A stretch of 64,000 bases of DNA from Patescibacteria group bacterium (GCA_038058635.1 JBBUAP010000001.1:94157-158156); one strand, 5' to 3'. Counted from the stretch's first letter, positions 4,742 through 30,379 are shown. The notes: generated from the sequence alone by a model not told the origin. Program-made: numbers and translations.

Positions 4742-4841
4742 ATCCGACCTCCTAACACCTGAGTGTTTCTGGCCGGATCATATCAATAAATCTTCCTCGG
4801 ATCAAGCGTGTCAAATAGAGTTTCGTAGACGAAACTTTCAG

Positions 4842-4928
4842 CGGAAGGGCAGGGATTCGAACCCTGGGACCCCTTACGAGGTCAACACATTAGCAGTGTG
4901 CTCCATTCGGCCACTCTGGCACCCTTCC
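4842..4928 (-). tRNA. tRNA-Ser (anticodon GCT)
   Basis: Reverse complement folds as a class-II tRNA. Acceptor is GGAAGGG/CCCTTCC, anticodon stem GCACA/TGTGT with loop CTGCTAA, a long variable arm, T-arm GGGTTCGAATCCC. No encoded CCA. Confidence 0.85.
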
Positions 4929-5050: not shown

Positions 5051-5908
5051 ATGAAAAAGGTATTAGTATCCGCTCTCGTCGTTCTGTCGTCGACGCTGGC
5101 CTTCGGCCAGGAGATCGACGACTTGGCTGGCAGAGCTTTCGATCGACCGGCAGTCAAGTGGTTGGCGGAAGTGGAAATCGGCCAGGACAAGAACGGGTGG
5201 AATCCATACGTCTCTGATGAAGAGGTCGTTGCCCGATTCGGCTGGCTAGCCGGGTTGCACGGCGTCGGACTCGGGCCGAACACTCAGGAGCTTCTCCGCG
5301 AGGTCGGAGACGCAGAGCTACGCACTGACCCCGACATTGCCAAGTGGATGAAACCGTCCGCCCGGCAAGCTCAAGGACGGATCAGCGATGTCGGCTGGAG
5401 ATTCCAGCTTGTAGCTGGCGGTGACAGTTCGTCTGGCAACAACGAGTTTGGGATCGGTAGCGTTCGGGTTCAGCTCGAATCTGGCAAAGCCGTTGCGAAG
5501 CTCGGAGTCAAGGTCACGAACCTTACCTCCATGGAAGCGAAGATTTTTTGGTTCGAGGTTTCTCATGCCTCGACCAACTTATCTTCGGCGGAGAACTACT
5601 CATTCTCCAACTTGTTTCGGAAATCTGGCTTGCCAAATTTCCGTTACGACTCCGACCAGGGGAGCGCTGGCAATCGACGAGGTTACATCGTTGTGGCCAA
5701 GCTTTGGTTGAGAATCCACAAGGAGTTCAGCCAGATCACTAACTGGATGAACTCCTTCTCCGACCCTGAGCCCGCTCGCGCCTATGCGCGGCGGGTTCTT
5801 TTTTATTCTTTCCGAGCGGAAGGGGTGGGATTTGAACCCACGATACCTTGCGGTATACCGGTTTTCGAAACCGGCGCACTAGGCCACTATGCGACCCTTC
5901 CAGTGTGA
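5051..5908 (+). CDS. Secreted hypothetical protein (signal peptide MKKVLVSALVVLSSTLAFGQ). The annotated 3' end reads through the antisense tRNA-Ser, so the true stop is uncertain.
   Basis: Long ORF with a classical Sec signal peptide. The last ~30 codons are the reverse-complement translation of tRNA-Ser(CGA). Confidence 0.45.
   Translation: MKKVLVSALVVLSSTLAFGQEIDDLAGRAFDRPAVKWLAEVEIGQDKNGWNPYVSDEEVVARFGWLAGLHGVGLGPNTQELLREVGDAELRTDPDIAKWMKPSARQAQGRISDVGWRFQLVAGGDSSSGNNEFGIGSVRVQLESGKAVAKLGVKVTNLTSMEAKIFWFEVSHASTNLSSAENYSFSNLFRKSGLPNFRYDSDQGSAGNRRGYIVVAKLWLRIHKEFSQITNWMNSFSDPEPARAYARRVLFYSFRAEGVGFEPTIPCGIPVFETGALGHYATLPV
5817..5901 (-). tRNA. tRNA-Ser (anticodon CGA)
   Basis: Reverse complement is GGAAGGGTCGCATAGTGGCC...CCGGTTTCGAAAACCGG...GGGTTCAAATCCCACCCCTTCCG. 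Anticodon loop TTCGAAA, long variable arm. Confidence 0.85.
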
Positions 5909-6104: not shown

Positions 6105-7532
6105 ATGCCTAAGAATATTCAGTCGGTGATTAAGGGGTACTCTCGTCAGAAAGAAGAAGAGCAGACACGCCTAGTGGCAACCGAGAACAAACTGCCCTAT
6201 ATCAATTTAGTTAACTATCCGTTCACCGGCGATGTCTTGGGCTTTATTCCTGAAGGAACAGCCACCAAATTTTCGGTGATTGCTTTCGAGCGGCTGGGCA
6301 ATATTATTCGGGTCGCCACACCGTTCCCGTTCCGACCCGATCTTGACGAACAGATGAACAAGCTGGGGGAGGACGGCAAGGTCCGTTTCGAGCCGTATTT
6401 CTGCTCCCAGACATCGATTGAATACGCTATCAAGCAGTACGCTAAGCTAGTTCGGCCGGCAGCCGAACGAACTAGGGCCCAGGCCGAGAAAGAGTCGGTT
6501 GGGGACTTCCTAAAGAATGTGGCCAACCTGGAAGAGTTCGGCGGCGCTATCCAAAATGTCAGCACCACCAAATTATTCGAAACCATTCTGTCCGGCGCCG
6601 TGGCCTTTAATGCCTCTGATATCCATTTCGAGCCCCAGGCCGAGTTTATCCGCGTTCGTTTCCGGGTTGATGGTGTCCTTCAAGATGTCGCTTCAGTCAG
6701 CGCCGAGTCGTACCGCCTGCTCAACTCCCGAGTTAAGAATCTTTCCGGCCTCAAGCTAAACAAGAATGCTGGAGCCCAAGATGGCCGGTTCTCAATTGAA
6801 ATAGGTAGTGAAAAAATGGATGTTCGCGTCAGTATTCTCCCCGCCACTTACGGCGAGGTGATTGAGCTGCGTTTGCTGACAGGCAAGGCGTTTCTTTCGC
6901 TCGACCAACTGGGGCTTGATGAGGGTGCAAAGGCGGCAATTCTGCGCGCTATCCAGTTCGATACCGGCATGATTATTGTGACCGGCCCGACTGGCGCCGG
7001 TAAAACGACGACGCTCTACGCCATTCTTAAATCCCTCAATACTCCGGATAAAAAAATAATTACCATCGAAGATCCGGTCGAGTATAAGATTGCCGGTATT
7101 GAACAAATTCAAGTCCAGCCCGATCACGGCTTTGATTTTGCCCAAGCCCTGCGGGCGGTCTTACGCCAAGATCCAAATATTATTTTAGTTGGAGAAATTC
7201 GCGATAAGGAAACGGCCGAGATTGCGATTAACGCTTCCTTAACTGGTCATTTAGTCCTAACTACCCTCCACGCCAACTCCGCTCCAGCGACATTTGCCAG
7301 GCTTATCGAAATGGGCGCTCCGGGTCACTTACTTTCCGACGCCATTCGCCTGATTATTGCCCAAAAATTAGTCAAGCGCCCCGAACCCAAGGAAGGCGAA
7401 CCGGGTCGCATGGTCGTCGCACAATACCTCGAACCAACCGCCGAGTACACCGAGCTAATCAAACAAAAAGCCAGTATCCGCGAGTTCGAGGAACTATTCG
7501 AAAAGCTGGGCGACAAGCTCCCTGGAAGTTGA
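6105..7532 (+). CDS. pilB: GspE/PilB-family secretion/pilus-assembly ATPase
   Basis: Walker A GPTGAGKTTT, the Asp/His boxes typical of T2SS-E/PilB ATPases (IITIEDPVEY...ILVGEIRD...TLHANSA) and a T2SE-Nter-like N-domain. Confidence 0.85.
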   Translation: MPKNIQSVIKGYSRQKEEEQTRLVATENKLPYINLVNYPFTGDVLGFIPEGTATKFSVIAFERLGNIIRVATPFPFRPDLDEQMNKLGEDGKVRFEPYFCSQTSIEYAIKQYAKLVRPAAERTRAQAEKESVGDFLKNVANLEEFGGAIQNVSTTKLFETILSGAVAFNASDIHFEPQAEFIRVRFRVDGVLQDVASVSAESYRLLNSRVKNLSGLKLNKNAGAQDGRFSIEIGSEKMDVRVSILPATYGEVIELRLLTGKAFLSLDQLGLDEGAKAAILRAIQFDTGMIIVTGPTGAGKTTTLYAILKSLNTPDKKIITIEDPVEYKIAGIEQIQVQPDHGFDFAQALRAVLRQDPNIILVGEIRDKETAEIAINASLTGHLVLTTLHANSAPATFARLIEMGAPGHLLSDAIRLIIAQKLVKRPEPKEGEPGRMVVAQYLEPTAEYTELIKQKASIREFEELFEKLGDKLPGS

Positions 7533-7540
7533 CCGCCAGG

Positions 7541-7921
7541 CTACGCTGCGTCGCCAAGATTGCCACCCAGAGTGGCGGCAAAACGAAGGATGAAAAAGGC
7601 TAGGACTACTACGACAATTCCGATAATGGCGTTAAGGATCCCCGTTCGAGCTTTAGTGGCCTTTTCGGAGTCACCGCCAGCGGTAATATAGTTGACGCCA
7701 CTCATTATCAGGTAAACGAAGGCCAAAACAGCCACGACTGCCAGCACCCAGCTCATCGCAAACGATATTACTTCTCCAAAAGTTGCCTTGGCGCTACCGC
7801 TATTTGGCGTTTTGCCAAAGGGCTTGAACATATTAAACCAGTTGTCTGCAAGAGCGCCACCACCACTGTCAAACTGGGCGTAGACTCGGCCGATAAAGAA
7901 ACTATTCAGTTTATCAATCAT
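7541..7921 (-). CDS. VirB2/TrbC-like T4SS pilin-family protein (two-TM), paralog 1
   Basis: 126 aa: a ~45-aa non-hydrophobic N-region, TM1, a loop ITAGGDSEKATKAR, then TM2. Strong SD (AGGAGG) before the start and a -35 TTGACA about 80 nt upstream on the minus strand. Confidence 0.6.
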   Translation of the reverse strand: MIDKLNSFFIGRVYAQFDSGGGALADNWFNMFKPFGKTPNSGSAKATFGEVISFAMSWVLAVVAVLAFVYLIMSGVNYITAGGDSEKATKARTGILNAIIGIVVVVLAFFILRFAATLGGNLGDAA

Positions 7922-8024
7922 TATTCCATCTCCTCCTAATTTAAATTATTCATAATGAGAATCACTACTATATGTACTCATATTTCTAGTTTATTTAGGT
8001 GCTGTCAATAGCCGGCAGGATAAC

Positions 8025-8165
8025 TGTACGACTTCCACGAAGGGATTCCATCCCCTCGTGTATAGTCGGCGGGATTCGCCTCCTAACACTTGCGGATTCA
8101 CCGCTCTCTATACACAGCAGGATACTCTGCTGTGGAAGTCGCGCGATTTTATCGCCGACTATAGC
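8025..8165. ncRNA. Candidate structured RNA or cis-regulatory element between pilin paralogs 1 and 2; strand undetermined
   Basis: Four short GC-rich hairpins sit at 8035-8055, 8065-8077, 8089-8101 and 8111-8130. Two long-range complementary pairs interleave them pseudoknot-style: cgacttccac (8025) with gtggaagtcg (8129), and tatagtcggcg (8059) with cgccgactata (8151). No credible ORF. Confidence 0.3.
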
Positions 8166-8220
8166 GACCAGGTAACGGTCGCTTCAGCAGCGCTATCTCG
8201 CTGTCGATGGCCACCATTCG

Positions 8221-8577
8221 CTAACCGTTATATCCAAGCAAGGCAATGAAGAAGTGAATGATGAAGCGAGAAAGTACTGCGATCGCAAAGCCGATAATGG
8301 CGTATTGGAGAGTTTTCTTGGCGGCAGCGTATTTGGCCTCATCACCAAAGGCGGTGAACATCATATAGCCGGCCTTAATGATGTAGCAGAAGGCAATAAA
8401 GGCGGCGACAGCCGAGAGAATGTCGGTGTAGTGCGCAATACTGTTTGTGAGACAAGACTGCAAGCTTTCTCTCGCTTCAAGAATTTCCTTTCGTAACAGC
8501 GCGTTCTCTGGCGCATCAGGATCGAGAAAGCAATTCGCTAAGAAAAAGTCTTTGAGCGGTTGGCCAAAGATTGTCAT
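8221..8577 (-). CDS. VirB2/TrbC-like pilin-family protein, paralog 2
   Basis: 118 aa with the same architecture (TM1, FTAFGDEAKYAAAKK, TM2). Confidence 0.55.
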   Translation of the reverse strand: MTIFGQPLKDFFLANCFLDPDAPENALLRKEILEARESLQSCLTNSIAHYTDILSAVAAFIAFCYIIKAGYMMFTAFGDEAKYAAAKKTLQYAIIGFAIAVLSRFIIHFFIALLGYNG

Positions 8578-8921
8578 GGTGTCGGAGCACCGATAAGAGC
8601 GCCCGTTAAGCTAAAGACAAATTTAATAATGAAATACGAGAGAACGATAACGACGACACCCACGATAGACCAAATGAGGTTTTTCTTGCCAGCGGCAAAT
8701 TTAGTGGCGTCACCACCAGCAGTGATCATCATCACGCCAGAGTAGATGATGCCGACGAAGGCAGCGGCAGCGAGAAAGGCAAAAATAAGACTGGTCACGG
8801 TTTCCTGCAGGTTGTAGTTGCCAGGATTATTCGGATCATATAGGCCGGGCGGAAGGTTGAGTTTGATGTCGTCAGCAGCAGCAACGGTGCGACCAAGAAA
8901 TATTGAGAATACTTGACTCAT
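8574..8921 (-). CDS. VirB2/TrbC-like pilin-family protein, paralog 3
   Basis: 115 aa with TM1, ITAGGDATKFAAGKK and TM2. Overlaps paralog 2 by 4 nt. Confidence 0.6.
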   Translation of the reverse strand: MSQVFSIFLGRTVAAADDIKLNLPPGLYDPNNPGNYNLQETVTSLIFAFLAAAAFVGIIYSGVMMITAGGDATKFAAGKKNLIWSIVGVVVIVLSYFIIKFVFSLTGALIGAPTP

Positions 8922-8923
8922 TG

Positions 8924-9271
8924 TCAGCTAGTAGAGATGCCTAGAGTCGGCAGAATCAGCTTTATTAGTAATAAAATTGCTAGGCCAGTTAAGCAGCCGG
9001 CGATCAATTCCTTCGCCAATGCGATTTTACTGGCCTCGCCCTCGCTTTGGGCATACAGAATGCCGGCGTAGATTGTAATCAAAACCGATATGGCGATGGC
9101 GACAATAATCCCGACATTGACCAAGGAAGAAAAGTATTCCTGGAATGTAACTGGAACTTCCGGACATTTGCCACCGTTAGCATTTTTAATAGCTTCCGTG
9201 CAGTTGCCAATAGGCAATCCGGGCTGAAACTTCCCTTGAGCCAGAACGCTTGCTATCAACCAGTCTTTCAT
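8924..9271 (-). CDS. VirB2/TrbC-like pilin-family protein, paralog 4
   Basis: 115 aa with TM1, YAQSEGEASKIALAKE and TM2. Cys-containing N-region. Confidence 0.5.
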   Translation of the reverse strand: MKDWLIASVLAQGKFQPGLPIGNCTEAIKNANGGKCPEVPVTFQEYFSSLVNVGIIVAIAISVLITIYAGILYAQSEGEASKIALAKELIAGCLTGLAILLLIKLILPTLGISTS

Positions 9272-9282
9272 TAATTTAGTAA

Positions 9283-10662
9283 TTATTTTATCAGCGTTTT
9301 CAGCCGCTCGGCGGCACTATCTATAGCCGCTTGCAGGGATTGGCCGCTAATTAGCGCTTGATTAAGCATGTCCTGAACAATCTCGTCGCTGGTTTGCCAG
9401 TCCGACTTGTACACGGCTGGGGCAAAACTGGCCTGCTGGGCAAACAGTTCGGTTCCGCCTAAGTCACCTACGCTCAGTCTTATCGTCGCTTCCTGGGCTT
9501 GAACAAATGACGGCCTACCTGTCAGCTGGGCGTATTTTTGCGAGCCAGCAGTGCCGAGGGTTTGCAGATAAGCCCAGGCGGTCGAGGGTTTGTTGGAAAC
9601 CTTAGAAACAACATGGGTCCAGTAGTTAGCCGCGTCAATCCGCTTATTAGTAATCGCTGGGTCGCCCACTTGCGGTAGTGGAACAATCTTAACAGTATCG
9701 AAGTCCTTTTTGGCTTTTTGGATGTCTCTCGAAAGTGTCGAGTAGCCCAGCATCATCGCCAGTTTATTATTGACAAAGGCGCTGACCGGATCACCCATCG
9801 TGGCGTTCCAGGAATAATTCGGGTCCCCGGCCCGGGCAAAAGAGCTAAAAAGCGTCAACGCTTGGAGTCCGGGGGTCTGATCTTTGCCATCAATCACCTT
9901 GACTAGGTGTAGCCCAACACCTTTTTCGTCGTGTGTGAATAAACTACCACCGTTCTGGGCAAGCATTCCCACAAAACTATCGACCGGAGCGTAAGTATTG
10001 CCGGTCGTACCGAGCGAGAAACCAGAAACGCTGATACTGCGGGAATCCTTCTTGGTTAGCAGGCGACTCCAGACAGCTAACTCCTCCCAAGTGGTGGGGG
10101 CGCTGTTGAGTTTTTCCGCCTCGGCCTCGTGACTTTCCGACAAAGCATTGACGGTGTCGTTAACAACTTTGGTGTTGACGTAGAGCGCCAATGAGTCAAC
10201 CGCCAGGGGAAAGCCAAATAATGCTCCGTCGCGGATATTTTGAGCGGCGATGGCGGGACCAAAGAACGTCTCGGCCGCTTCGGCCTCGGTCTGCTTGGTT
10301 TTACTTATATCAATGTATTTGGTCGAGGGAATGAGCTTGCTTTGATGCTTGGCAAGCCAGTCGGTGCGGATCAGCCAGATGTCTGGCCCGCCGCCGCCGG
10401 CGATCGCGTCAACAACTTTTGCCTCGTAATCTTTGGCGTCGGTGGCCGGAATATACTTGAAAGATAATTTGACGGTTGGGTTGTCGGTCAAAAACTCCTC
10501 GCTGATTTGCTTGTATATATCCGCCTCGTCAAAAGGCGACCAAATCGTCAGGGTGTTATCGGTCGTTGTAGTATCTTTATCTCCTGTCAGGGCGGTAATC
10601 AACACGACAGCAACTGCTAACACGATTACCCCGATTAGTGCGAAAAACAGCCCCCTCTTCAT
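9283..10662 (-). CDS. Extracellular solute-binding protein (ABC-type, family 1-like). No permease or ATPase gene adjacent.
   Basis: 459 aa with an N-terminal TM/signal anchor. Size and composition fit a periplasmic-binding-protein fold. Confidence 0.6.
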   Translation of the reverse strand: MKRGLFFALIGVIVLAVAVVLITALTGDKDTTTTDNTLTIWSPFDEADIYKQISEEFLTDNPTVKLSFKYIPATDAKDYEAKVVDAIAGGGGPDIWLIRTDWLAKHQSKLIPSTKYIDISKTKQTEAEAAETFFGPAIAAQNIRDGALFGFPLAVDSLALYVNTKVVNDTVNALSESHEAEAEKLNSAPTTWEELAVWSRLLTKKDSRSISVSGFSLGTTGNTYAPVDSFVGMLAQNGGSLFTHDEKGVGLHLVKVIDGKDQTPGLQALTLFSSFARAGDPNYSWNATMGDPVSAFVNNKLAMMLGYSTLSRDIQKAKKDFDTVKIVPLPQVGDPAITNKRIDAANYWTHVVSKVSNKPSTAWAYLQTLGTAGSQKYAQLTGRPSFVQAQEATIRLSVGDLGGTELFAQQASFAPAVYKSDWQTSDEIVQDMLNQALISGQSLQAAIDSAAERLKTLIK

Positions 10663-10946: not shown

Positions 10947-11326
10947 TTACTCGACGTTGACTGTCAGCACTCGAGTCTTGGTTTTTTCTTGCTTCGGAAT
11001 CTTGATCGTCAGAATGCCGTTACGCATACTGGCTTCGGCTTTGGCGGCGTCCACCGGAACCGGCAGAATATAGGAGCGCATAAACGAACCCCAGTAACAT
11101 TCTTGGACGAAGTAATTTTCGCGAACTGATTCGGCTTCGTTCTTGCGCTGGCCTTTAACAGTGACGACTTCGTCGGTGATCTGAATCTCTAGATCTTCGG
11201 TTTTAACGCCAGCAATCGGCGCCTTAATAATAACATTGTCGTCGTCTTGGTAGGCGTCGATGGCCAGCTGGCCTTCTTCCTCCTCTTCAAGCCACTCTTC
11301 TGTAACAACTTCTTCTTTTCGTGCCA
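10947..11326 (-). CDS. Hsp20/alpha-crystallin family small heat-shock protein
   Basis: Alpha-crystallin-domain sequence (IKAPIAGVKTEDLEIQITDEVVTVKGQR...NGILTIKIPK). Start taken at the internal ATG (MARKEEVV), since the longer ORF adds an arbitrary leader. Confidence 0.8.
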
Positions 11327-11373
11327 TATTGTCTGTATTGTCTGTCTTATGAATAGACACGTCAAGCCAAGAT

Positions 11374-12099
11374 ATGCCTAAAACCAATTTGGGCAGGAGC
11401 TTGTTGTCGCTAATTATGCCGATCGAGTGTCTCGGCTGTGGGGCGGAATCGGACTGGATCTGCCGTGATTGTCGACGCGATATACGAACACAACGAGAAG
11501 ATCTTTGTTTTTGCGGTAAGGTCGGTGAGGACGGGCTTTGCGCCAAGCACCGAGAAAAGCTAGGCCTAGACGGCTTAACTACGCTGTTTAGCTATGCCGA
11601 GCCCGCCATCCGAGAATTGATTCATCAAGTGAAATATCGCGGCCACACCGATGCCGTCACTTTCTTTGCCTGGCAGTATCAGAAGAAAGTGTTAGCTCGC
11701 TTACCGCGGGGGGGCTCTTCGACAAGCTCAGAGTTCCCCCGACCAGAGTCGTGGGGAGACTGGGTGGTGACGGCCGTGCCGCTTTCCAGGCAACGACAAA
11801 GAGAGCGCGGCTTCAACCAATCGGCGCTGTTCGCTAAAAGACTAGCCGAGCCAGTCTATGATTATGTTGAGTTGCTGATAAAAAAGCGCGAGACTAAGCC
11901 CCAGGTTAAACTTAATAAAACCAGGCGGGAGAAAAATCTTCTTCGAAGCTTTGCGATAAAGCCCGGTGTTGAAATGCCCGAGCAAGTTATTATTGTTGAC
12001 GATGTTATAACTTCAGGCTCAACCCTCAAAGAAGCCGCTAAAGTCCTGCGTAAAGCCGGGGTTCAACAAATTTGGGCCCTAACTATCGCCCACGGTTGA
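11374..12099 (+). CDS. comFC: ComF-family protein (ComFC-like phosphoribosyltransferase with an N-terminal zinc ribbon)
   Basis: N-terminal CLGCG...CRDC zinc ribbon and a C-terminal PRTase motif VIIVDDVITSGSTL. Confidence 0.75.
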   Translation: MPKTNLGRSLLSLIMPIECLGCGAESDWICRDCRRDIRTQREDLCFCGKVGEDGLCAKHREKLGLDGLTTLFSYAEPAIRELIHQVKYRGHTDAVTFFAWQYQKKVLARLPRGGSSTSSEFPRPESWGDWVVTAVPLSRQRQRERGFNQSALFAKRLAEPVYDYVELLIKKRETKPQVKLNKTRREKNLLRSFAIKPGVEMPEQVIIVDDVITSGSTLKEAAKVLRKAGVQQIWALTIAHG

Positions 12100-14724: not shown

Positions 14725-16077
14725 ATGCCCAATCCTGTTTGGACCGACATCTTGAATACTTTAGAGCCGACGATGAGCCGACCGAACTTTGTGACCTGGT
14801 TGGCGTCGACCGATCTAATCGAGGATATCCCCGGCGCTTTAACTATCACCGTTCCCAACCAGTACGCCAAAAGCTGGTTGGAAAATAATCTAATCGGGGA
14901 TATTGAAGCGCTCCTAAAAAAGAGTGTGGAAAACTTTGAGCAAGTCCGGATTGTGGTGGCCAAAAAAAGCTCGGCAACGCTTGACGACCTACCGATACTC
15001 CAGGGTGTCAGCGAAGCTTTGACGGAACCCGAGAGCGACAAGACTCCAAAGACTAACCTCTTCAACCCCAAATACACCTTCGAATCCTTCATCGTCGGCA
15101 ACAACAACCGCTTGGCCTTTGCCGCCGCCCAAGCCGTCGCCGATAAACCTGGCGAGGCCTACAATCCGCTCTTTATTTACGGTGGGGTTGGCCTGGGGAA
15201 AACTCACTTGATGCAGGCGATCGCCAACGCCATCGTCCAGCACAGCCCGAAGAAAAAGATTGCCTATGTCTCTTGCGAAACCTTTGCCAGCGAATTTATT
15301 GAAGCCCTCCAAAACAAGGCCATCAACGAGTTTAAACGTAAGTATCGCTCGGCTGATATCTTTTTGGTTGATGATATTCAGTTCTTAGCCAATAAGGAGG
15401 GGACCCAAGAGGAGTTTTTTCACACTTTTAATACCCTTCACCAGGCTAATCGTCAGATTGTGATGACGGCCGACCGAATGCCAAAAGAAATCGGCGATTT
15501 GGAAGATCGACTAATATCGCGCATCGGTTGGGGAATGGTGGCTGATATCCAGACCCCGAACTTTGAAAACCGAGTGGCGATCCTGCAGGCCAAGGCCGCC
15601 GCGATGAACTTTACTGTTGGGTCGGACATTTTAGAGTATATCGCCAACACTATAACCGCTAATATCCGCGAACTTGAAGGGTCGCTCACTAAACTAGCGA
15701 CGACCGCCACAGTGGAGAAGAAAGCGGTGACGATTGAGCTAACAAAAGCAGTGCTGAAAGACCTGGCTCGCCCTAATAGTCGACGATTCACGACCAAGCA
15801 GGTTATTCGGGCTGTCGCCGATCACTTCGCGATCGAGCCGAGCGACCTAATGGGTCAAAAGAGGGTTCAGGAGATCGTCTACCCCCGTCAGATCGTGATG
15901 TATATTCTTCGGTACTCGTTGGGACATTCCCACCCCCAGATCGGAGACGAACTGGGCGGTAAAGACCACACTACGATTATGCATGGGGTAAAGAAGATTG
16001 AGCGCTTACTAAAATCTGATCGTCAGGTTGAGCGCGATTTGGCTGATGTTAAGCAACTTCTAGAGGGTGGTTCCTAA
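14725..16077 (+). CDS. dnaA: Chromosomal replication initiator DnaA
   Basis: AAA+ Walker A GGVGLGKTHL and a C-terminal DnaA box-binding domain. Divergent from rpmH. Confidence 0.95.
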   Translation: MPNPVWTDILNTLEPTMSRPNFVTWLASTDLIEDIPGALTITVPNQYAKSWLENNLIGDIEALLKKSVENFEQVRIVVAKKSSATLDDLPILQGVSEALTEPESDKTPKTNLFNPKYTFESFIVGNNNRLAFAAAQAVADKPGEAYNPLFIYGGVGLGKTHLMQAIANAIVQHSPKKKIAYVSCETFASEFIEALQNKAINEFKRKYRSADIFLVDDIQFLANKEGTQEEFFHTFNTLHQANRQIVMTADRMPKEIGDLEDRLISRIGWGMVADIQTPNFENRVAILQAKAAAMNFTVGSDILEYIANTITANIRELEGSLTKLATTATVEKKAVTIELTKAVLKDLARPNSRRFTTKQVIRAVADHFAIEPSDLMGQKRVQEIVYPRQIVMYILRYSLGHSHPQIGDELGGKDHTTIMHGVKKIERLLKSDRQVERDLADVKQLLEGGS

Positions 16078-16084
16078 AGTGGAA

Positions 16085-16307
16085 AACATGTGGACAACTC
16101 TAATGGGAGGGGTGGTAGTATTAGGTCGATATTCTTGGTACAACAGGTTAAGCCGTTCATCCACAATCAAAACCCAACTTATCCACAGTTTATCCAAACA
16201 TTTCCACAGCCCTACCCCTAATTACCCACTAATCCACCGCACTTACAACTACTACTAATTATGGAAACTAAAAAATTAATTACTAAAAAACACCCAATAA
16301 AATAAAC
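16085..16307. promoter_or_regulatory. oriC candidate: a DnaA-box cluster plus an AT-rich unwinding element between dnaA and dnaN
   Basis: One perfect TTATCCACA at 16179-16187. Near-consensus boxes are TGTGGACAA (16090), TCATCCACA (16157), TTATCCAAA (16190), ATTTCCACA (about 16199) and TAATCCACC (16230). An AT-rich run follows at 16255-16307. Confidence 0.7.
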
Positions 16308-17396
16308 ATGATATTTAATACTGAAAAAGAAAAACTTCTCAACGCTGTGAGTTTAACTAGTAGTTTAGCCACTACTCGTTCAACCCTACCAATCCTTCAA
16401 AATATCTTTTTAGAAGTTAAAAGTACTCAACTACTAATTAAATCAACCGATCTTGACCAGACGCTAGAAGTGTTGGTGGATGGCATGGTTAGTGACAAAG
16501 GAGCTCTAACTATCCCAGCTCGCCTAATAGTGGAGTACTTAAACAATAATCCTGACGCCAGCATTACCCTAGACTCGAATGATTTAGACTTAACTATCAA
16601 ATCAACCAATCACCAAGCGAAAATAAAGGGGCTAGCGGCCGAGGAGTATCCATCAACACCGGCTATCAAACCACAATCAACTGTGACACTACCGCTCGGA
16701 CAGCTACAGTCCGCAATTACTAAAACTATTTTTGCCAGCGCCACAGATGATAGTCGGCCGATACTCAACGGTCTGTTATGGCGCTTTAACGGGAAGAAAC
16801 TGACGATTGTTGGTACGGACGGCTATCGCCTAGCTTGCCAGTCGTTCGAGGTTCCAAACGAGGCTGAGGGTGACTTTATTATCCCCAAAAGAGCGCTCCA
16901 ACAATTACTAAAATTGCCTGGCGATGGCGAATTGGAAGTGGCCTTTGCCAGTAACCAGGTTCGTTTTTCAATTGGTTTGATTACCTTAACTTCTCGCCTC
17001 CTAGATGGTAATTTCCCGCCGTATGAGGCGATTATTCCTAAAAAGATGTCGACCGAGATCGCTATCAACTCTCACCAACTAGCAAAAAGCTTAAAGTTGG
17101 CTAGCCTATTTTCTCGTGACTCGGCTTATAGCGCCAAGATATTGCTCGAGGGCGACACGATGAAGATTAGCGCCGTTTCGGCGACTATCGGCGAGAATAC
17201 TAACGAATTAAAATTGGCTTCTCCGGTGGTAGTACCGTTGACGATATCCTTAAACGCCCAGTACCTAATTGATGGATTGGGAGCGGTCGAGGGCGATGCC
17301 AAGGTCGGTTTTATCGATGCCAAAAGCCCGATCACAGTGGCGCCAATTAAGGATAGCGAGTACCTTTACCTTCTGATGCCGCTTCGGAGTGAGTAA
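16308..17396 (+). CDS. dnaN: DNA polymerase III beta sliding clamp
   Basis: 362 aa in the standard position after dnaA, with the three-domain beta-clamp size. Confidence 0.88.
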   Translation: MIFNTEKEKLLNAVSLTSSLATTRSTLPILQNIFLEVKSTQLLIKSTDLDQTLEVLVDGMVSDKGALTIPARLIVEYLNNNPDASITLDSNDLDLTIKSTNHQAKIKGLAAEEYPSTPAIKPQSTVTLPLGQLQSAITKTIFASATDDSRPILNGLLWRFNGKKLTIVGTDGYRLACQSFEVPNEAEGDFIIPKRALQQLLKLPGDGELEVAFASNQVRFSIGLITLTSRLLDGNFPPYEAIIPKKMSTEIAINSHQLAKSLKLASLFSRDSAYSAKILLEGDTMKISAVSATIGENTNELKLASPVVVPLTISLNAQYLIDGLGAVEGDAKVGFIDAKSPITVAPIKDSEYLYLLMPLRSE

Positions 17397-19517: not shown

Positions 19518-20234
19518 TCATTTTACAGTATTGACCGCCTCTGAAGCTGAACCGGTTTCGCAAGTTACTTGGTCTGGGACTAGAAGCTTAATAACATCGA
19601 GGCGCTTGTAGTACGGATTACCGTAGTTTGTATGCTTGTAGTTTCTATCCCAGCGTTGACCGCTCTCGTTGTACTGAATCGTCATTGCTTCGGCGTAGTG
19701 GTAAAACAATCGGGTGATAACATTTGCCCCCTTCGGAGTTGTGTAAGCTCCCTTGACGGCAATAGCGTTTTCTAGCGGACGCCAAACGTTAGCTAATTGG
19801 TATGGCCAGCCGCCGGCCTTGGCCGCCGCCGTTCTCCCGCTACTATAATGCTCGTACCCAAAAGCATCGTCTGGATTACCAAACTCTTGCTCACCCCACC
19901 ACACACCAATTATGACAGCTGGATTAAGGCCCCGTTTTTGCCCTTCGGTTAGAATATCTAAAATATTTGACTTGACTCTAGCAGCCCGAGGACCATACCT
20001 GGAGTTCTTGACTAGGGTAGCAATTACTTTTTCGGGATCGTCGGCAATCGAGGTGTCGGTAAAATACTTGTCTTCCAAATAGCAGCCAGTACCGTAACTG
20101 GGACCACTGGCGCCTGTTGGCTTATCGAGTTTTGGTAATTGGCCGAAGACGGCGTAGTAGACTATCGCAAACGAGAAGAAAATTAACGCTAGGATGGCAA
20201 TGATGATGGCGATAACCGCATTGCCATTACGCAT
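19518..20234 (-). CDS. Hypothetical membrane-anchored extracytoplasmic protein, possibly a cell-wall-active enzyme
   Basis: N-terminal TM anchor, then a soluble domain rich in Trp/Tyr/Gly (GVWWGEQEFGN). A function as a wall-active enzyme is inferred from context only. Confidence 0.45.
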   Translation of the reverse strand: MRNGNAVIAIIIAILALIFFSFAIVYYAVFGQLPKLDKPTGASGPSYGTGCYLEDKYFTDTSIADDPEKVIATLVKNSRYGPRAARVKSNILDILTEGQKRGLNPAVIIGVWWGEQEFGNPDDAFGYEHYSSGRTAAAKAGGWPYQLANVWRPLENAIAVKGAYTTPKGANVITRLFYHYAEAMTIQYNESGQRWDRNYKHTNYGNPYYKRLDVIKLLVPDQVTCETGSASEAVNTVK

Positions 20235-23200
20235 TAGAAGATTCCTCCAAAACCAACATGAACCCAATCGGTCGTTTTGGTGGACTTTTGGGAGAAACCG
20301 AGGCCGATTGTGTCGCTGTCAAGAGACCAGTCGCCGAAGGCGTCAACCATTCTGGGCTCGAAGAACTCGGCATTGGCCTGACGGTAGGTCAGCACCTGGA
20401 GCGGTTTGAAAGGCGATTCTCTCTGTTCGCCGTAAGCAAGCGTGGCATCGAGGAGTTTGCCGACATAGTAGCGCGACCAACCCATCCAGATTTTTTGGTT
20501 GTCGCCTTTGGTGAACGGTTGGGTGTCATCCCAATCGAACGGGTTTTGCCCGGGGCTGGGCGAACTCCGAATTTGGCTGATATCAGCCGGCAACTGATCG
20601 TATGGGACACCAAAATCAAACTGATCAGCGGCTGAGTCATATTCGCTGACACCGTAAAGCTCCTGCGGTGGCATTGGGCAGAGATACTCAACCTTATAGA
20701 CCCCAAACATGTAGATGGCGACGGCGATGTAGATACCGGTCGGGCCAAGCCCCAGGGCGTTGGCAATAAATCCTGTCACTAAAGCCTGCACGGTTCCGGG
20801 AGGGGCGGCGATCGCTTCGTCGGCCGAACCGAAAAACGCTTGACACTCCTTACAGGCACTTAACCCGAGCTCTATGGCAAACATAATCAATGCTGCCCGA
20901 GCGGCCGAAACATTGCTTCTAGCGTTAGTGACGGATAGCGCCCCTTCTTTACCAGCCTTGGCCGCAGTTAAAGCTTTCTGGGCGCCGGAGATGGTGGTGT
21001 AGAGTTTGTAGGCCTGATAAACCTTACCGGCCGGTAAGCCAAACTTTTTGTCACCCCACGAGCTTAAGCGGCTAATCAGAAAATCTTTACCTAAGTTGTC
21101 CAGCGACTCGACAAGAGTAATCTTTCCGGTCGCATCTTTCAGGTCTTTGGCAGTATTCCAGTTATTAACAGCCGCAAAGTAAAGCGATTTAGCTAGACCG
21201 CTCGGCAAACTACCGATATTGAGATTATCGTCTAACCAGTTGTCGAAGAAGCCCCACATCGCTCCGTATTTGTCGTTATTAGTAAAGAAGTCGCCCTGAC
21301 CCCGAGTCCGAGCGAATTGGTAGAAGCTACTGACAAAGGCGGTTGAGAATGATCCAAACGAGACACCCGACTGGCCAATGAGATTGAGAACAATTCGATC
21401 GGTTGTGGCTGGATCGATCTCACCTTCGTAGAGGGCTTTGAGCATGCCAGGCACATACAGCGGCGACAGTCGAACTAGCTCGGTATCGAGTTTGCCGAAA
21501 GCAAAATTCTGCAAGAGGGCACCGCGTTCGGCGGTCGTACCACTAAACATTGTTCGCGAAAACCCAACCGGAATAGACGAGTCGATCTTGCGCAGGAGCG
21601 AGTCGGACATGCGATACTCAATATTCTTCTGGGCCTCTTCCATTAGCTGTCCTCGGGCCTCTTTGTAGTCGGCAGCTGCCTGCTCTTCCGACTCACTGCT
21701 TATTACCCCAGCTTCGGCGTTATTCTCCGCTATCCTAGCGTAGATAACATCAGGGTTATCCATAATCAAGGCCCTCCTCATCTCGGCGTAAGTAAATTGG
21801 TCATTGGCCGGCATGAACTGGTTTATTTGCGGCAAAAGGGCAGCAAATGAAGTAGCGGCGATCGCTAGCCGCCAATCCCCAGTAATAAAGGCCTCGGCAT
21901 CGGTCCGAAACTCGATCGGGATACCGGTGGCCCGCAAGAAAAAGTCGCCAACACCATTCGAGACCCGGACATAGCTTTGCAGATTAGGGTCTGTTTCTAG
22001 CCGTTGTAGTTGGTATTTTTGTTCGGCAGTTAGTTTGTCTGGGCTAATAAGTTTTAACCGAGCGTACTCTTGGCGTTGGCGCTCTAACAGTTCCTGTTCC
22101 TCGGTCGTGCCAGTACGATTGTAGAGACCCTTAACTTGCTCGGCCAAGCGTTCAAAATCTTCAAAGTTATAGCCGTCCAAATTGACACCGATTGATTGTC
22201 CGACCATGCGCAGACCCTGATCGAGGAGCAAGTTAGCGCCGGTGCCAGTGCCGGGAGCAATAATATATTGCAGGAAAGAATCTTTACTAAAGTTGGCCTT
22301 GCCGTCAACCGACCGACCCATTAAGCGGTTGATTACCGCGACACCGGTTTCAATCTCCTCTAGTGTTTGATCGTCACCGCCCTTAATTACCTTAATCAAG
22401 GCATTAATTTCGGTGGAACTAAGCTTGAACTGGTCGCTAATGCCAAAATAGTCATAGATTTTATCGGCCGTAAAACCTTCGAGTGAACCTTGAGTGGCCT
22501 TGGTTGCTAGTTGTTTGGTACTAATTTTGTCCTGGAGATAAGAGGCAACGGTGCCAATTGGTGTCCCGAGGGCGATATCGAGCGACCGCCAACCAGTAGT
22601 ATTGGTCTCATCTGCCCAGAAAGTTTCATCACCCATCAACTCGGTTAATGTTTGGCTACTGTTGAGGTGGAAAATTCGATAACCCTGGCTCGGGTCGATC
22701 CCGTTGGCGCCGTAAAAGAGAGTTCGGGCCGAATCATTAGCCCGTAGTTTTTCTTGTGAAATGCCGAGTCGTTCGGCCAAAACGGCGTAGCCGTAGTTTT
22801 CTGGAATATTGCCTTTAAGCGAGACATTTTGATCTTTCAGTCCCAAGGTGGTACTGACATAGTTGGCGAAGATCTCCTGGGTGGCGTCGGCCAGCTTTTT
22901 ATCGCCGTTGATCACAGCAAAAGTACTGCCGGCGTTCCAACCGAAGGCCTTGTCCACCTGGACGCCGCCTAATTTCTCGGCCAGAATTAGGTTTTTGCCG
23001 TCAAATAAGCTCGATAAATCGGCGGGGATAATTTGGGAAGAGGGGTCCTTGATACTGTATTCCTTATTGATAAAAGCGGCGATCTCAGGGCCGTGTTTGT
23101 TAACGAAACTCTTGATATCAACCTTGCCCTTGCTCAGGTTATTGTCGTCAACGCCGATCTGGACGCCCATTGTCGAGGCGCCAACAGTATTAGTAACATC

Positions 23201-24775
23201 GCCAAGCTTAACTTCCTTTTTAGGGTTAAGGAGGTCGTCTAATATCGGCTTGGTTAAGCCGGAATACTTACCTTTCACAGCTTTCTTGGCAGCTTCCCGA
23301 ACCATCGCCAGCCCGAAAGTCTTTAAAGAATCTTGGGACTCCTTCTGCTTCTTGGGGTCGGCTGAGAACATATTCTTCAAATCTTCGGTGCCGATGGTGT
23401 TGCCGGTCGGGGCGCCGTCGAGCTTAACTTCGCTCGGAGTCTTCTTCTCGGTAACGGCTTTCTCAAGCAGGGCCTTTTGGTCGCTCGGCAACTTGAGGGC
23501 GTCGGAAAGAACATTCACCCCAGCCATCTTCAGACCCTTGGCGTCTTTCTTCTTCAAGGTATCAACGGTGCCGATCATTAAGTTCAAGCCATCGTCCGAG
23601 CGGCCGAATTTGTCTAAAACGGCTCTGATCGTCTCACTATTCATTGCGTCGTCGAGGGTGTGCTTGTCGAAGTAGCCGTTGGGAATGCCGAGCGATGTTT
23701 CCAGGTGTCGCTTGCCGGTCGCCTCTAAGATGTTGTCCCAGCCGTAGCCCCGCAAACTACCAGCGGGAAGATTCAATCCTTGCTCAACCCGACTCTTGGC
23801 GAAAGCGACTCGGGCGTCCTCATCGTAGTCGCCGGTGGCAATGCCCGTTGGCAAGCCCGGTAGCGATCGTTCCAGGACGGCGCCGCCGAGGGTGTGAAGT
23901 AGGCCGTCGGCCAACGGGTCGCTCAAGACTTGGTTGACGCCGAAGGTTTTTAAGTAAATATTAGCGCCGACATAGCTGACGATAGTTTTTAGGTCCATCC
24001 CTTTGACATACTCGATGTAATAATCCATCTCCCCCGATTGATTTAGGTAAGCGGCAATACTTTGAGCGCCCATTTCGCCGGAAGCGCCCAAAATACTCTG
24101 GGCAGTCGGGGTGGGATTACTCTTAACACCCTCGACGCTCTGCCAAGCGACTTTGACTGGCATGGGCTTTTGCCACCGAGTTGTGGAGCCGCCGATGTGG
24201 CGTTTCTCGACCAACTTACAGACAACTGAACCAACCTCCGAAATATCGAGAGCCTGGCCGCGGTTATGGCCGGAAACAATATCACCTTCGTCAGTAATCG
24301 CCTGGGTGCCCTCACGGTCGAACCTACCAGCGCCTTCAGAAGTGTAGTTTTTCAAAATCCGATTGACTTTAATATGATCAAAACCGTAGCCGCCTTGCTC
24401 AACCGGTAAGACTAGCTGTAGCAGGTAATCAGTCGTTCGAATATCGACCTTACCATCTTTGAGTTGATTTATATCGTCGGGAGAAATCTCCAAATTGCCT
24501 TCGATTTCATTGATAGCTTGCAGGTCGTAAGTACTCTGAACCTGGAATTGGCCTGGCTCAGCAGTTGGTTCATCGGGTGAAATCCAGTCAGAAGGGTAAT
24601 AATCCGTTTCTGGATAGGTTGCTACATCAACCTCTGTCAAATCTTCCTCTTGCTTATCTGTTTGGGCATAAGCACGGGGTAGAGGCCCCATGCTGAAACC
24701 GGCGGCCACCATCGGTTGGAGAATAATTATCATGGTAGAGAGAAGGATCTTTAGTCTAAATCCGGGGCTTCTCAT
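20234..24775 (-). CDS. Giant secreted/surface protein (1513 aa) within the T4SS-like block
   Basis: Uninterrupted 4.5-kb ORF with an N-terminal signal peptide (MIIILQPMVAAGFSMGPLPRAYAQ) and a hydrophobic segment near the C-terminus. Translationally coupled to its neighbours. Confidence 0.7.
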   Translation of the reverse strand: MRSPGFRLKILLSTMIIILQPMVAAGFSMGPLPRAYAQTDKQEEDLTEVDVATYPETDYYPSDWISPDEPTAEPGQFQVQSTYDLQAINEIEGNLEISPDDINQLKDGKVDIRTTDYLLQLVLPVEQGGYGFDHIKVNRILKNYTSEGAGRFDREGTQAITDEGDIVSGHNRGQALDISEVGSVVCKLVEKRHIGGSTTRWQKPMPVKVAWQSVEGVKSNPTPTAQSILGASGEMGAQSIAAYLNQSGEMDYYIEYVKGMDLKTIVSYVGANIYLKTFGVNQVLSDPLADGLLHTLGGAVLERSLPGLPTGIATGDYDEDARVAFAKSRVEQGLNLPAGSLRGYGWDNILEATGKRHLETSLGIPNGYFDKHTLDDAMNSETIRAVLDKFGRSDDGLNLMIGTVDTLKKKDAKGLKMAGVNVLSDALKLPSDQKALLEKAVTEKKTPSEVKLDGAPTGNTIGTEDLKNMFSADPKKQKESQDSLKTFGLAMVREAAKKAVKGKYSGLTKPILDDLLNPKKEVKLGDVTNTVGASTMGVQIGVDDNNLSKGKVDIKSFVNKHGPEIAAFINKEYSIKDPSSQIIPADLSSLFDGKNLILAEKLGGVQVDKAFGWNAGSTFAVINGDKKLADATQEIFANYVSTTLGLKDQNVSLKGNIPENYGYAVLAERLGISQEKLRANDSARTLFYGANGIDPSQGYRIFHLNSSQTLTELMGDETFWADETNTTGWRSLDIALGTPIGTVASYLQDKISTKQLATKATQGSLEGFTADKIYDYFGISDQFKLSSTEINALIKVIKGGDDQTLEEIETGVAVINRLMGRSVDGKANFSKDSFLQYIIAPGTGTGANLLLDQGLRMVGQSIGVNLDGYNFEDFERLAEQVKGLYNRTGTTEEQELLERQRQEYARLKLISPDKLTAEQKYQLQRLETDPNLQSYVRVSNGVGDFFLRATGIPIEFRTDAEAFITGDWRLAIAATSFAALLPQINQFMPANDQFTYAEMRRALIMDNPDVIYARIAENNAEAGVISSESEEQAAADYKEARGQLMEEAQKNIEYRMSDSLLRKIDSSIPVGFSRTMFSGTTAERGALLQNFAFGKLDTELVRLSPLYVPGMLKALYEGEIDPATTDRIVLNLIGQSGVSFGSFSTAFVSSFYQFARTRGQGDFFTNNDKYGAMWGFFDNWLDDNLNIGSLPSGLAKSLYFAAVNNWNTAKDLKDATGKITLVESLDNLGKDFLISRLSSWGDKKFGLPAGKVYQAYKLYTTISGAQKALTAAKAGKEGALSVTNARSNVSAARAALIMFAIELGLSACKECQAFFGSADEAIAAPPGTVQALVTGFIANALGLGPTGIYIAVAIYMFGVYKVEYLCPMPPQELYGVSEYDSAADQFDFGVPYDQLPADISQIRSSPSPGQNPFDWDDTQPFTKGDNQKIWMGWSRYYVGKLLDATLAYGEQRESPFKPLQVLTYRQANAEFFEPRMVDAFGDWSLDSDTIGLGFSQKSTKTTDWVHVGFGGIF

Positions 24776-26106
24776 AAGTCACTTCCATATCTTTTGGCAC
24801 CATTGAAGACAATACAACTACTTCGGCTTGCAGCCCCCCGCCTTCTTATTTGTGGCGGTGGAGTTCCGTCCTTCCCACCGGAGCTATTATCAATTGCTTC
24901 ATCTCCTCCGATGTAAAATCCGATATGATCAAATAGAACCGAACCTCCCTTAGAGCAGCTACCGTCCCCCCAGAATATAATATCACCAACCTGAAGCTTG
25001 CTCTTATTCTGGTTGTAGTAACCGGCACTTTTAATGTCCGGACGACTAACAACTATCTTATAAAATGGTCGTCTCCAAATGCCATCAACACCGGCTTCGA
25101 TTGGATTAGGTATGCCTGCGTTCTGCAAGACCGTTGAAACGAAAGAGGCGCAGGCAACTCGACCGCCGGCCTTAGTGATGGTACAAAAATTACCACTTGC
25201 CTGACCGACTTGATCTTTGGCCTCTTTGGCGATCCATTCTCCAAACGGTAAAGTTGAGTCCAGCGCTTGAATTTTACTTATCGCCTCCCCAAGCTGTTTC
25301 TTTTTCGCTTCTCCGGATAAGTTGATCCCCGATTCGATGGTTAATAGAATCTCCTTAACTTTTAACCTGACTTCCGCGACCCGTTCGGGTTTTGTTGCCC
25401 CAACATTTTTAAGCACAAAGTCATAACGCTCTTTCTCGGTCGCCAAAACTTTTTCGGTAACTTTCCGTCCCGAAAGGACGAAATCTCCTCCAATTGATGC
25501 CACCAGAGTTGTCTGATCGGTCTGCGCTTGAGTAGTCGGATACTGCGGGCTGCCCTTACCGCCGAGCAAGCCAAGAGGGATGGCGATGAGTAATAGTAGT
25601 CCGGCGATGATACACACAATCCAAGTCCAGAACTTTTTGTTAGTCAGCAACTTTTTAATATCTAATGCGATTAGAACTTCGCCTAAAATCGGAATTAGCC
25701 GGGCACCGAGCTTGCCACCGACCTTCAAACCGGCCCTTCCTACATCTTCGGCAAGTTCTTTCCCGACACCTTTGGCAACTGGCTGGCCGGCACCACTAAG
25801 AGGGGGAACTTTCTTGAGATTTTTAGCCCCTTCGATACCCGGCTCTATCATCCCGGCCTTATCGGCACTGCGGGCGCCGAGTTTTCCTTTGACCTTACCG
25901 TAAGTCCCTTTAGCGTTATCGAACTGACTTTTTAGGCCTCGCCTCCGACCGATGACATTTTGCTGCGGAGCTCCCTGTTGGTCATCTGGCAGCCCGGGTT
26001 CGGTCGGCGGTCCGTCGTAACCCAAATCGCTTAACAGGTCGCGATCGGGATCAAACCCGTCTGGTTGGACCTCTGGTAATTGCTCTGGATAAAGTACTTC
26101 TGGCAT
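24772..26106 (-). CDS. Membrane-anchored NlpC/P60- or CHAP-like cell-wall hydrolase, a functional analogue of VirB1/PrgK/TcpG
   Basis: C-terminal domain has a Cys...His papain-like arrangement (GNFCTITKAGGRVACASFVSTVLQNAG ... GDIIFWGD ... FDHIGFYIGG). A central TM segment and a Pro/Gly-rich N-region. Confidence 0.6.
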   Translation of the reverse strand: MPEVLYPEQLPEVQPDGFDPDRDLLSDLGYDGPPTEPGLPDDQQGAPQQNVIGRRRGLKSQFDNAKGTYGKVKGKLGARSADKAGMIEPGIEGAKNLKKVPPLSGAGQPVAKGVGKELAEDVGRAGLKVGGKLGARLIPILGEVLIALDIKKLLTNKKFWTWIVCIIAGLLLLIAIPLGLLGGKGSPQYPTTQAQTDQTTLVASIGGDFVLSGRKVTEKVLATEKERYDFVLKNVGATKPERVAEVRLKVKEILLTIESGINLSGEAKKKQLGEAISKIQALDSTLPFGEWIAKEAKDQVGQASGNFCTITKAGGRVACASFVSTVLQNAGIPNPIEAGVDGIWRRPFYKIVVSRPDIKSAGYYNQNKSKLQVGDIIFWGDGSCSKGGSVLFDHIGFYIGGDEAIDNSSGGKDGTPPPQIRRRGAASRSSCIVFNGAKRYGSDL

Positions 26107-26185
26107 TTATTTAGTAATTTTGTAACTTCGAGTGAAGTGAGAAGCGAGTGTTAGTGACATTCAGTAATTTCGTAATTTTTCTCCA

Positions 26186-29303: not shown

Positions 29304-29432
29304 TTTAACTTCCAGTCTTTCTCCCTCCCTAAAAACAGTTTAGCAAAGTAATCTTGCGGAATATACTCGTCGGGACGCCTCGTTAGCTCGTAGCTAAGTC
29401 AGCTACTTGCTATAGATTCATGATTCAAGAAT

Positions 29433-30374: not shown

Positions 30375-30379
30375 AGTTA

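Follow-up and report, generated by a model that had tools for sequence, protein, structure and literature searches.

A PilB-family ATPase convergent with VirB2-like pilin genes, a candidate accessory motor of an origin-proximal type IV secretion system in Patescibacteria

Which machine is served by a PilB-type ATPase encoded next to small two-helix proteins that resemble the pilins of a type IV secretion system (T4SS)? This question is raised by positions 6105-9271 of a 64,000-nucleotide stretch of DNA (hereafter the window) from a Patescibacteria group bacterium (GCA_038058635.1 JBBUAP010000001.1:94157-158156) whose nearest named relatives are Candidatus Berkelbacteria. The initial annotation, made from the sequence alone, placed four small genes downstream of the ATPase gene. 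They lie in fact on the minus strand, convergent with it, and are downstream of a gene for a solute-binding protein (SBP) that was not mentioned. The features of the locus, with the evidence for each in parentheses, are as follows.

6105-7532, plus strand: ATPase, a PilB/GspE-family traffic ATPase of 475 residues, assigned to a T4SS-linked subfamily (T2SSE, PDB, clade tree).
7541-7921, minus strand: p1, predicted VirB2-like pilin of 126 residues (PF18895, 41.1 bits).
7932-8008, minus strand: promoter-like site and Shine-Dalgarno (SD) sequence of p1 (read from the sequence).
8221-8577, minus strand: p2, predicted VirB2-like pilin of 118 residues, with a cysteine pair in its N-region (PF18895, 39.0 bits).
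8574-8921, minus strand: p3, predicted VirB2-like pilin of 115 residues (PF18895, 36.5 bits; orthologue order).
8924-9271, minus strand: p4, predicted divergent VirB2-like pilin of 115 residues, the first pilin gene after the SBP gene (hhalign).
9283-10662, minus strand: SBP, a membrane-anchored MalE-like solute-binding protein of 459 residues (SBP_bac_8, SBP_bac_1).

Our reading is that the small proteins are T4SS pilins and that the PilB-derived ATPase would act as an accessory motor of the same T4SS; we put the probability of this reading as a whole at roughly 0.55. The first part was addressed by a profile check that had been proposed for the four proteins. p1, p2 and p3 passed the PF18895 (T4SS_pilin) model with the scores listed above (gathering score 26.6 bits). 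p4 alone was sub-threshold (20.7 bits) and joins the family by hhalign, in which the p4 family aligned with the p1 family (97.9%, E 3.9e-13); 7/7 p4 orthologues match PF18895. Matches of the small proteins to TrbC/VirB2 were sub-threshold (19.8 bits for p3 against TrbC), and p1-p3 match NF045849, the pilin-like family of a Mycoplasma integrative conjugative element (ICE), weakly and below the family cut-off. p1 is 100% identical to the NCBI protein AAB669_00455 from a Patescibacteria metagenome-assembled genome.

Each of the four proteins contains two hydrophobic helices with a short polar, K/R-containing loop between them (TAGGDSEKATKAR, TAFGDEAKY, TAGGDATKF and QSEGEASK). The hydropathy segments of p1 span residues 46-82 and 89-123, with equivalents in p2-p4, and its AlphaFold (AF2) model is a helical hairpin (helices 44-80 and 85-125, core pLDDT ~90). 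Hydropathy, predicted hairpin and loops thus bear out the VirB2/TrbC-like two-helix layout recognized earlier. The N-termini share a conserved leader of 12-17 residues that ends in A-x-A (MIDKLNSFFIGRVYAQ and similar), is short and has internal K/R, and a variable region of ~25-35 residues follows before the helices. The leader is probably removed, and an S26 signal peptidase gene is present in the window (47724-48278). No class III prepilin motif (Glu at +5) was found in the first 60 residues of any window open reading frame (ORF) of at least 60 residues, pilins and SBP included; N_methyl had zero matches in the Pfam scan of the window, and no holin family of Pfam matched the small proteins. 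The claim that these genes lack a prepilin leader therefore stood, and neither a prepilin motif nor a holin-type match emerged. Foldseek searches of the p1 model against the PDB returned nothing at E<=0.001, helical hairpins being poorly discriminated, and no solved pilin was matched by a profile search of p1 against PDB sequences. Taken together, these sequence features support the view that the small proteins are VirB2/TrbC-like T4SS pilins and not type IV prepilins.

The T4SS to which such pilins could belong lies ~11 kb from the array, with its VirB4 gene ~15 coding sequences away.

20234-34576, minus strand: T4SS core block (Pfam; NCBIfam for VirB4).

It encodes a 1513-residue protein, an NlpC/P60 hydrolase (24772-26106), VirB4 (26186-28873), a PrgI/VirB3-like protein (28866-29303), a 313-residue protein and a 1398-residue protein (30380-34576). 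VirB4 passes the NCBIfam model conju_CD1110 (363.5 bits against a cut-off of 325). At three loci from other lineages (L121, L126 and L133) the order Hsp20-SBP-pilins-(1398-residue homologue)-PrgI-VirB4 is colinear on one strand. Because the operon runs on into PrgI-VirB4 at these loci, the SBP and the array are tied to the T4SS, and the suggested link between the pilin array and the T4SS-like block is supported. As a separate observation, residues 19-140 of VirB4 (895 residues) show a weak TrsD/TraD family match, which may be a TrsD fusion or merely known remote homology; TrsD is reported as a separate gene beside virB4 in most Patescibacteria.

The array itself is an ordinary member of a published system. 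Patescibacteria carry 2-11 VirB2-like genes per array near virB4 and dnaA, and a survey counted 441 arrays in 383 assemblies, averaging 25% identity (PMC12102498). In Southlakia epibionticum the array has six genes, belongs to the T4SS cluster and is essential (PMC10633639; reviewed in PMC12857230). A 2020 paper described the TM7x array as encoding small proteins secreted through Sec, and likened it to the ptx/ptl locus (PMC7427843). The S. epibionticum cluster (SEML1_0004-0019) and the Patescibacteria T4SS share with the window a divergent PF18895 array, an MPF-FATA-like VirB4, PrgI/VirB3, a hydrolase and giant proteins, adjacent dnaA-dnaN-recF genes, and Hsp20, ComF and tRNA-Ser genes beside the array. 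The window differs in that the origin region lies between its array and the core block; in addition, the array has an SBP gene at its head and abuts a PilB-family ATPase gene, neither of which is mentioned in these papers. The initial annotation had called the pairing of a type IV pilus motor with T4SS pilins unusual. The neighbourhood is indeed conserved, but VirB2-like arrays in Gram-positive-type T4SSs had already been published (PMC12102498, PMC10633639, PMC7427843).

We turned to the ATPase. Its placement in the T2SS-E/PilB family was confirmed by the Pfam model T2SSE (PF00437; 5e-96, 321.9 bits) and by the best solved structure, M. xanthus PilB (1e-82). It is 40-45% identical to PilB/GspE over residues 17-425 and has the same domain order, its Walker A, Asp, Walker B and His boxes are intact and invariant in the alignment, and its N-terminal domain matches GspE-N/MshEN (PF05157) with 25.4 bits (gathering score 23.1). 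However, it fails both equivalog models, that for PilB (TIGR02538, 359 bits against 675.65) and that for GspE (TIGR02533, 351 bits against 630.25). Unlike PilB/GspE, it is without the tetracysteine zinc module: the cysteine segment is 11 residues long with 0 Cys in the window ATPase and its closest relatives, compared with 22 residues (CxxCxGxGCxxC) in the wider clade and 49-63 residues in canonical PilB. In addition, ~30 C-terminal residues of PilB/GspE are missing from this ATPase and its sub-clade. The possibility that this truncation marks a pseudogene was rejected, since the short Cys-less form shows a dN/dS of 0.03-0.04, indicating strong purifying selection. At locus L134, a pilin-linked convergent ATPase of 548 residues (14827-16473) has a full-length, 62-residue cysteine segment and may stand midway between canonical PilB and the mini-knuckle form.

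The neighbourhood of the ATPase was then compared with that of its relatives. All 10 of the relatives looked up (43-84% identity) face, in convergent orientation, an array of 3-9 PF18895 genes with an SBP gene at its head, and the same convergence is found at 16 metagenome loci of the SBP survey described below. The unit ATPase-pilins-SBP-Hsp20 points its Hsp20 end toward yidC-dnaA in the window and in L001-L006, is inverted, with the ATPase end toward yidC-dnaA, in L007, L008, L090 and L091, and has no dnaA within 10 kb in L089. Where the SBP clade lacks a convergent ATPase, a related, co-directional ATPase of ~590 residues ends a T4SS segment composed of VirB4, the hydrolase, a ~495-residue protein and a giant protein (L172-L175, one of them on the same contig as L126). 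The giants beside the ~590-residue ATPases (1830-1892 residues) have no homology detectable by phmmer to the 1513-residue protein of the window.

Control loci were obtained with scan patterns made of the universal Walker A and Asp boxes, which are useless for finding relatives and hence serve as a negative control; they gave PilBs at most 41% identical to the ATPase, an arbitrary set of 80 loci among the matches listed. Among these matches, a pilin-like ORF within 10 kb was seen in 2/80 loci, and the Patescibacteria PilB loci are arranged as PilB-PilT-PilC or PilB-PilC-prepilin. By comparison, no PilC, PilT, prepilin or N_methyl gene occurs in the 64-kb window, in agreement with the earlier remark that prepilin peptidase, PilC and PilM-Q genes are not nearby, and no PilC/T2SSF, PilT or prepilin was found among Pfam-annotated genes within 10 kb at the 10 convergent-type and four ~590-residue-type loci. 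In a PilT-rooted neighbour-joining (distance-based) tree of 107 ATPases, the pilin- and T4SS-linked ATPases formed one clade (76/100 bootstraps), separate from 47 PilBs that have PilC within 10 kb, several of them from Patescibacteria. These data support the view that the ATPase-pilin neighbourhood is no accident of this genome. The PilB-derived, T4SS-linked ATPase subfamily appears to be undescribed: in the literature and supplements, T2SSE, PilB, GspE, VirB11, SBP and Hsp20 were not found as neighbours of the Patescibacteria T4SS.

Two further groups came to light around this clade. Some control loci (L009-L017, L019-L021, L024, L026 and L031) yielded a third set of PilB-like ATPases from Patescibacteria; it is the sister group of the T4SS-linked clade, likewise has no PilC within 10 kb, and lies beside RuvB in L011 and L020. 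An exported protein family (~230-600 residues, no Pfam match) is encoded between the ATPase and the array, co-directional with the ATPase, at eight loci (L007 11851-12978, L089 11764-12492, L109, L111, L116, L117, L120 and L161). It is not at that position in the sub-clade of the window, and may represent an additional part of the module.

The alternative that survives best is that the ATPase is the motor of a type IV pilus (T4P) or competence pilus encoded elsewhere, its position reflecting inherited gene order, or at most the co-regulation of two surface machines, without any physical part in the handling of the VirB2-like pilins. We hold this to be possible though doubtful. The best sequence matches, PilB and GspE, and the MshEN/GspE-N domain are those expected under this view, yet the subfamily stands apart from PilC-linked PilBs and its zinc module is reduced or lost. 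T4P are widespread in Patescibacteria, where they are needed for competence and adhesion (PMC10633639), and a ComF gene lies two genes away, but the annotated loci have none of the PilC, PilT and prepilin genes that accompany canonical Patescibacteria PilBs. Inherited order would fit with the convergent orientation of the ATPase and with the other housekeeping genes that are also fixed beside the T4SS; nevertheless, the ATPase-pilin unit persists through inversion and relocation, and one other lineage has its ATPase gene within the T4SS segment, reading in the same direction.

Several observations weigh against assigning the ATPase to the T4SS. The pilin genes are not co-transcribed with it. 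ValRS-TsaD-FemAB-Mur ligase is equally conserved beside the T4SS block, and because synteny of the origin region is generally high, adjacency of the ATPase is weak evidence of function. The support for the T4SS-linked clade is moderate and comes from a neighbour-joining tree. The enzyme is PilB/GspE-like and not VirB11, scoring 63.3 bits with the VirB11 model TIGR02788 (cut-off 249.95). The essential T4SS and array of S. epibionticum come without a PilB-like gene and without an SBP, so neither ATPase nor SBP is universally required. The ATPase could also be the sole PilB of the organism, serving a T4P encoded elsewhere. As for the pilins, the best relevant match of the fold search, the A. pernix conjugation pilus (8dfu), ranked 11th and was not significant (E 2.5, TM-score 0.63 on the target).

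p1-p4 share 28-42% identity with one another, each has positional orthologues elsewhere, and the order p4-p3-p2-p1 was recovered in at least 12 loci. Judged by these sequences, they are old, positionally fixed paralogues. Recent tandem duplication and diversifying selection are ruled out by this divergence and by the positional orthologues, and the diversifying N-regions that had been envisaged gave way to a conserved set. In some genomes the p2 or p3 orthologue is extended at its N- or C-terminus by further domains of 100-700 residues (234-808 residues in total; L002 11938-12666, L004 3697-4401, L006 6264-7040, L123 and L134); these proteins are possibly minor pilins of an adhesin-like kind. 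L004 also has a 204-residue ORF in which two pilin units are fused.

The genes of the set are not arranged alike. p4 starts 11 nt after the SBP ORF on the same strand, so that the SBP gene is the head of an operon of which the pilin genes are the tail. p2, p3 and p4 abut or overlap, the stop of p3 overlapping the start of p2 by 4 bp, and p1 is set apart, as first reported; a 299-bp spacer precedes it. Only p1 has an SD sequence (AGGAGG, 7937-7932), 10 nt before its ATG; p2-p4 have none. The claim that p1 has its own promoter fared less well: TTGACA is present (8008-8003) and is followed after 17 nt by AAATAT (7985-7980), but this -10 element is weak (3/6 consensus matches), and a consensus promoter and terminator scan, whose counts were no higher than in shuffled sequences, did not call the site. 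The promoter-like stretch is kept in the relatives L092 and L096.

The same spacer (7922-8220) contains an insertion of ~150 nt at about 8012-8160 on the minus strand, which is missing from the closest relative, L092; imperfect direct repeats, CTGGTCGCTAT and CTGCCGGCTAT, lie on either side of it. For the 233-nt spacer sequence, the folding energy is -101 kcal/mol (z = -6.3 against shuffles). Rfam searches of the window and the spacer returned tRNAs only, with no match for the structured spacer, and a repeat search showed the element to be single-copy in the window, with no further copy among the fetched loci either. A miniature mobile element is one possible explanation, a structured 3' untranslated region or RNA another.

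At the other end of the array, the stop codons of the convergent ATPase and p1 genes are 8 bp apart (7532-7541), and no terminator-like hairpin lies between them. With such a gap, the two transcripts must meet, and antisense or collision regulation could result. In L006, the ATPase and p1 genes overlap by 4 bp.

The SBP combines an N-terminal membrane anchor with SBP_bac_1/SBP_bac_8 Pfam domains and matches sugar-binding SBPs in the PDB; no ABC permease was found nearby. A scan of metagenomes with an alignment of its orthologues returned 80 loci (25-81% identity). A pilin-like ORF lies downstream of the SBP gene on the same strand in 69/69 loci with at least 250 bp of downstream sequence, and begins within ~210 bp of it in 64 of these. 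A candidate class III signal peptide on the SBP (MKRG|L...) was rejected, as the Gly and the +5 Glu vary among orthologues. No paper was found that mentions this SBP next to the Patescibacteria T4SS, and the placement of an SBP gene at the head of the pilin operon appears to be undescribed. Just upstream of the operon is a nearly constant neighbour in the fetched loci, often followed by ComF.

10947-11546, minus strand: Hsp20 gene (HSP20 Pfam; neighbourhood tables).

The start of Hsp20 probably lies inside this maximal ORF; in the window, the ComF gene occupies 11374-12099 on the plus strand. In S. epibionticum, the Hsp20 gene next to the array scores as essential, unlike ComF (PMC10633639).

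We propose a working model in which p1-p4 would be VirB2-like subunits of a chromosomal, origin-proximal T4SS, whose VirB4 machine would build them into a filament or stalk. With a promoter-like site of its own and a strong SD, p1 looks like the major subunit and would be abundantly made. p4, p3 and p2 look like minor subunits, since their genes are tightly packed and have no ribosome-binding sites. Inserted in the membrane, each pilin would form a helical hairpin whose loop points into the cytoplasm; the T4SS would then pull the subunits out and polymerise them. The ATPase would be an accessory, hexameric traffic ATPase of the T4SS, aiding pilin extraction or pilus assembly. We infer for it, by analogy, a role like that of VirB11, TrbB or DotB, though it falls outside those families. 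That the SBP is a surface receptor, a tip or a capture component is a guess. One may go further and see a lineage-wide hybrid, in which the Gram-positive-type T4SS of many Patescibacteria acquired VirB2-like pilins and also captured a PilB paralogue as a dedicated second motor in place of VirB11, the four subunits form a heteropolymer, and the SBP serves as tip, receptor or cargo-capture element, possibly for nutrient import or host recognition and not for export; we advance this only tentatively.

Known systems offer partial parallels to the model. VirB11 is needed for T-pilus production, and VirB11, TrbB, DotB and TraJ belong, like the window ATPase, to the secretion-ATPase superfamily PF00437 and are encoded with T4SS genes. 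The window ATPase is nevertheless nearer to PilB/GspE (359 against 63 bits) and has a GspE-N/MshEN-type N-domain; its match to VirB11 in the PDB is 7e-11, with no single stretch passing alone. Moreover, it occurs with a Gram-positive-type T4SS, a class normally without VirB11 and VirB2. Compared with PilB/GspE loci, PilC, PilT, PilM-O, prepilins and the prepilin peptidase are never near an ATPase of the window type at annotated loci. The Mycoplasma ICE (Mbov_0395, Mbov_0397) resembles the window in being a monoderm T4SS with a two-helix pilin-like protein and VirB4, and the window VirB4 matches the Mycoplasma family NF045975 below its cut-off, but the ICE is a mobile element with a single pilin-like gene, no SBP and no PilB-like ATPase. 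In IncI1 R64, a conjugative element that also encodes a type IVb pilus, the thin pilus (PMC12102498), a GspE/PilB-family ATPase is likewise encoded alongside a T4SS, yet that ATPase has its own PilC-like platform, prepilins and peptidase.

The archaeal bindosome uses a PilB-like ATPase, together with small proteins resembling pilins, to place sugar-binding proteins on the cell surface. On paper, the Bas system of Sulfolobus combines the same three kinds of component as the window: a binding protein for sugars, small membrane proteins of pilin-like type, and an ATPase of the PilB family. One could suppose that the SBP, the four hairpin proteins and the ATPase of the window make up an assembly for solute capture at the surface, in which the T4SS core has no part. 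We consider this improbable. The invariable coupling of a sugar-type SBP to the pilins with no ABC permease nearby fits such an assembly, as does the dependence of these organisms on scavenged nutrients (PMC12102498), but in L121, L126 and L133 the same operon runs into PrgI-VirB4, and the small proteins fall in the T4SS pilin family. The PilB-family ATPase at the end of the unit does match the BasE model weakly, but with 50.1 bits against a cut-off of 1000 this reflects the shared superfamily only. The Bas proteins and their SBPs also carry class III signal peptides, and the system includes the PilC-like BasF, whereas no class III signal peptide on the SBP or small proteins and no PilC-like ORF was found in the window. 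That the small proteins are Sec-exported effectors, as the TM7x array was first described (PMC7427843), or holin-like or channel-lining membrane proteins is very improbable: no pilus has been seen and neither the fold search nor the search of solved pilins gave a significant match, but three of the four pass PF18895 and the sub-threshold matches point to TrbC/VirB2 and the ICE pilin-like family, two long hydrophobic helices in the mature core are incompatible with a soluble effector, no holin family matched, and later work treats such proteins as pilins.

The window is core chromosome surrounding a replication origin, with rmlBCD, tRNAs, yidC-yidD-rnpA, dnaA-dnaN-recF and an aminoacyl-tRNA synthetase, and with TsaD, FemAB, a Mur ligase, PolA, PNPase, RNase J and FtsK. 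Upstream of the ATPase gene, a 285-residue ORF with a signal peptide (5051-5908, plus strand) reads through a tRNA-Ser gene (5816-5901, minus strand). Its homologues in L006 and L106 have different ends, its C-terminus having apparently been replaced, and it sits between two tRNA-Ser genes with GCT and CGA anticodons. The tRNA-Ser(GCT) gene (4841-4928, minus strand) is an ARAGORN call; when the whole window was scanned with Rfam, it stayed below the tRNA gathering score.

What appears to be new here is the coupling to an SBP, the constant set of four paralogues and the PilB subfamily linked to the T4SS, the array itself being known. Should the association be one of inherited gene order only, the locus would be an ordinary example of the published system. 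The T4SS with its pilin array is one of the few systems that a cultivated Patescibacterium has been shown to need for its epibiotic life, and how a Gram-positive-type T4SS assembles a VirB2-like pilus is a question raised in recent reviews. That the four paralogues are ancient and form a fixed set speaks for a structured heteropolymer over antigenic variation, and the SBP and the PilC-less PilB paralogue would be genetically testable candidates for a surface-recognition or uptake component and for the missing assembly motor.

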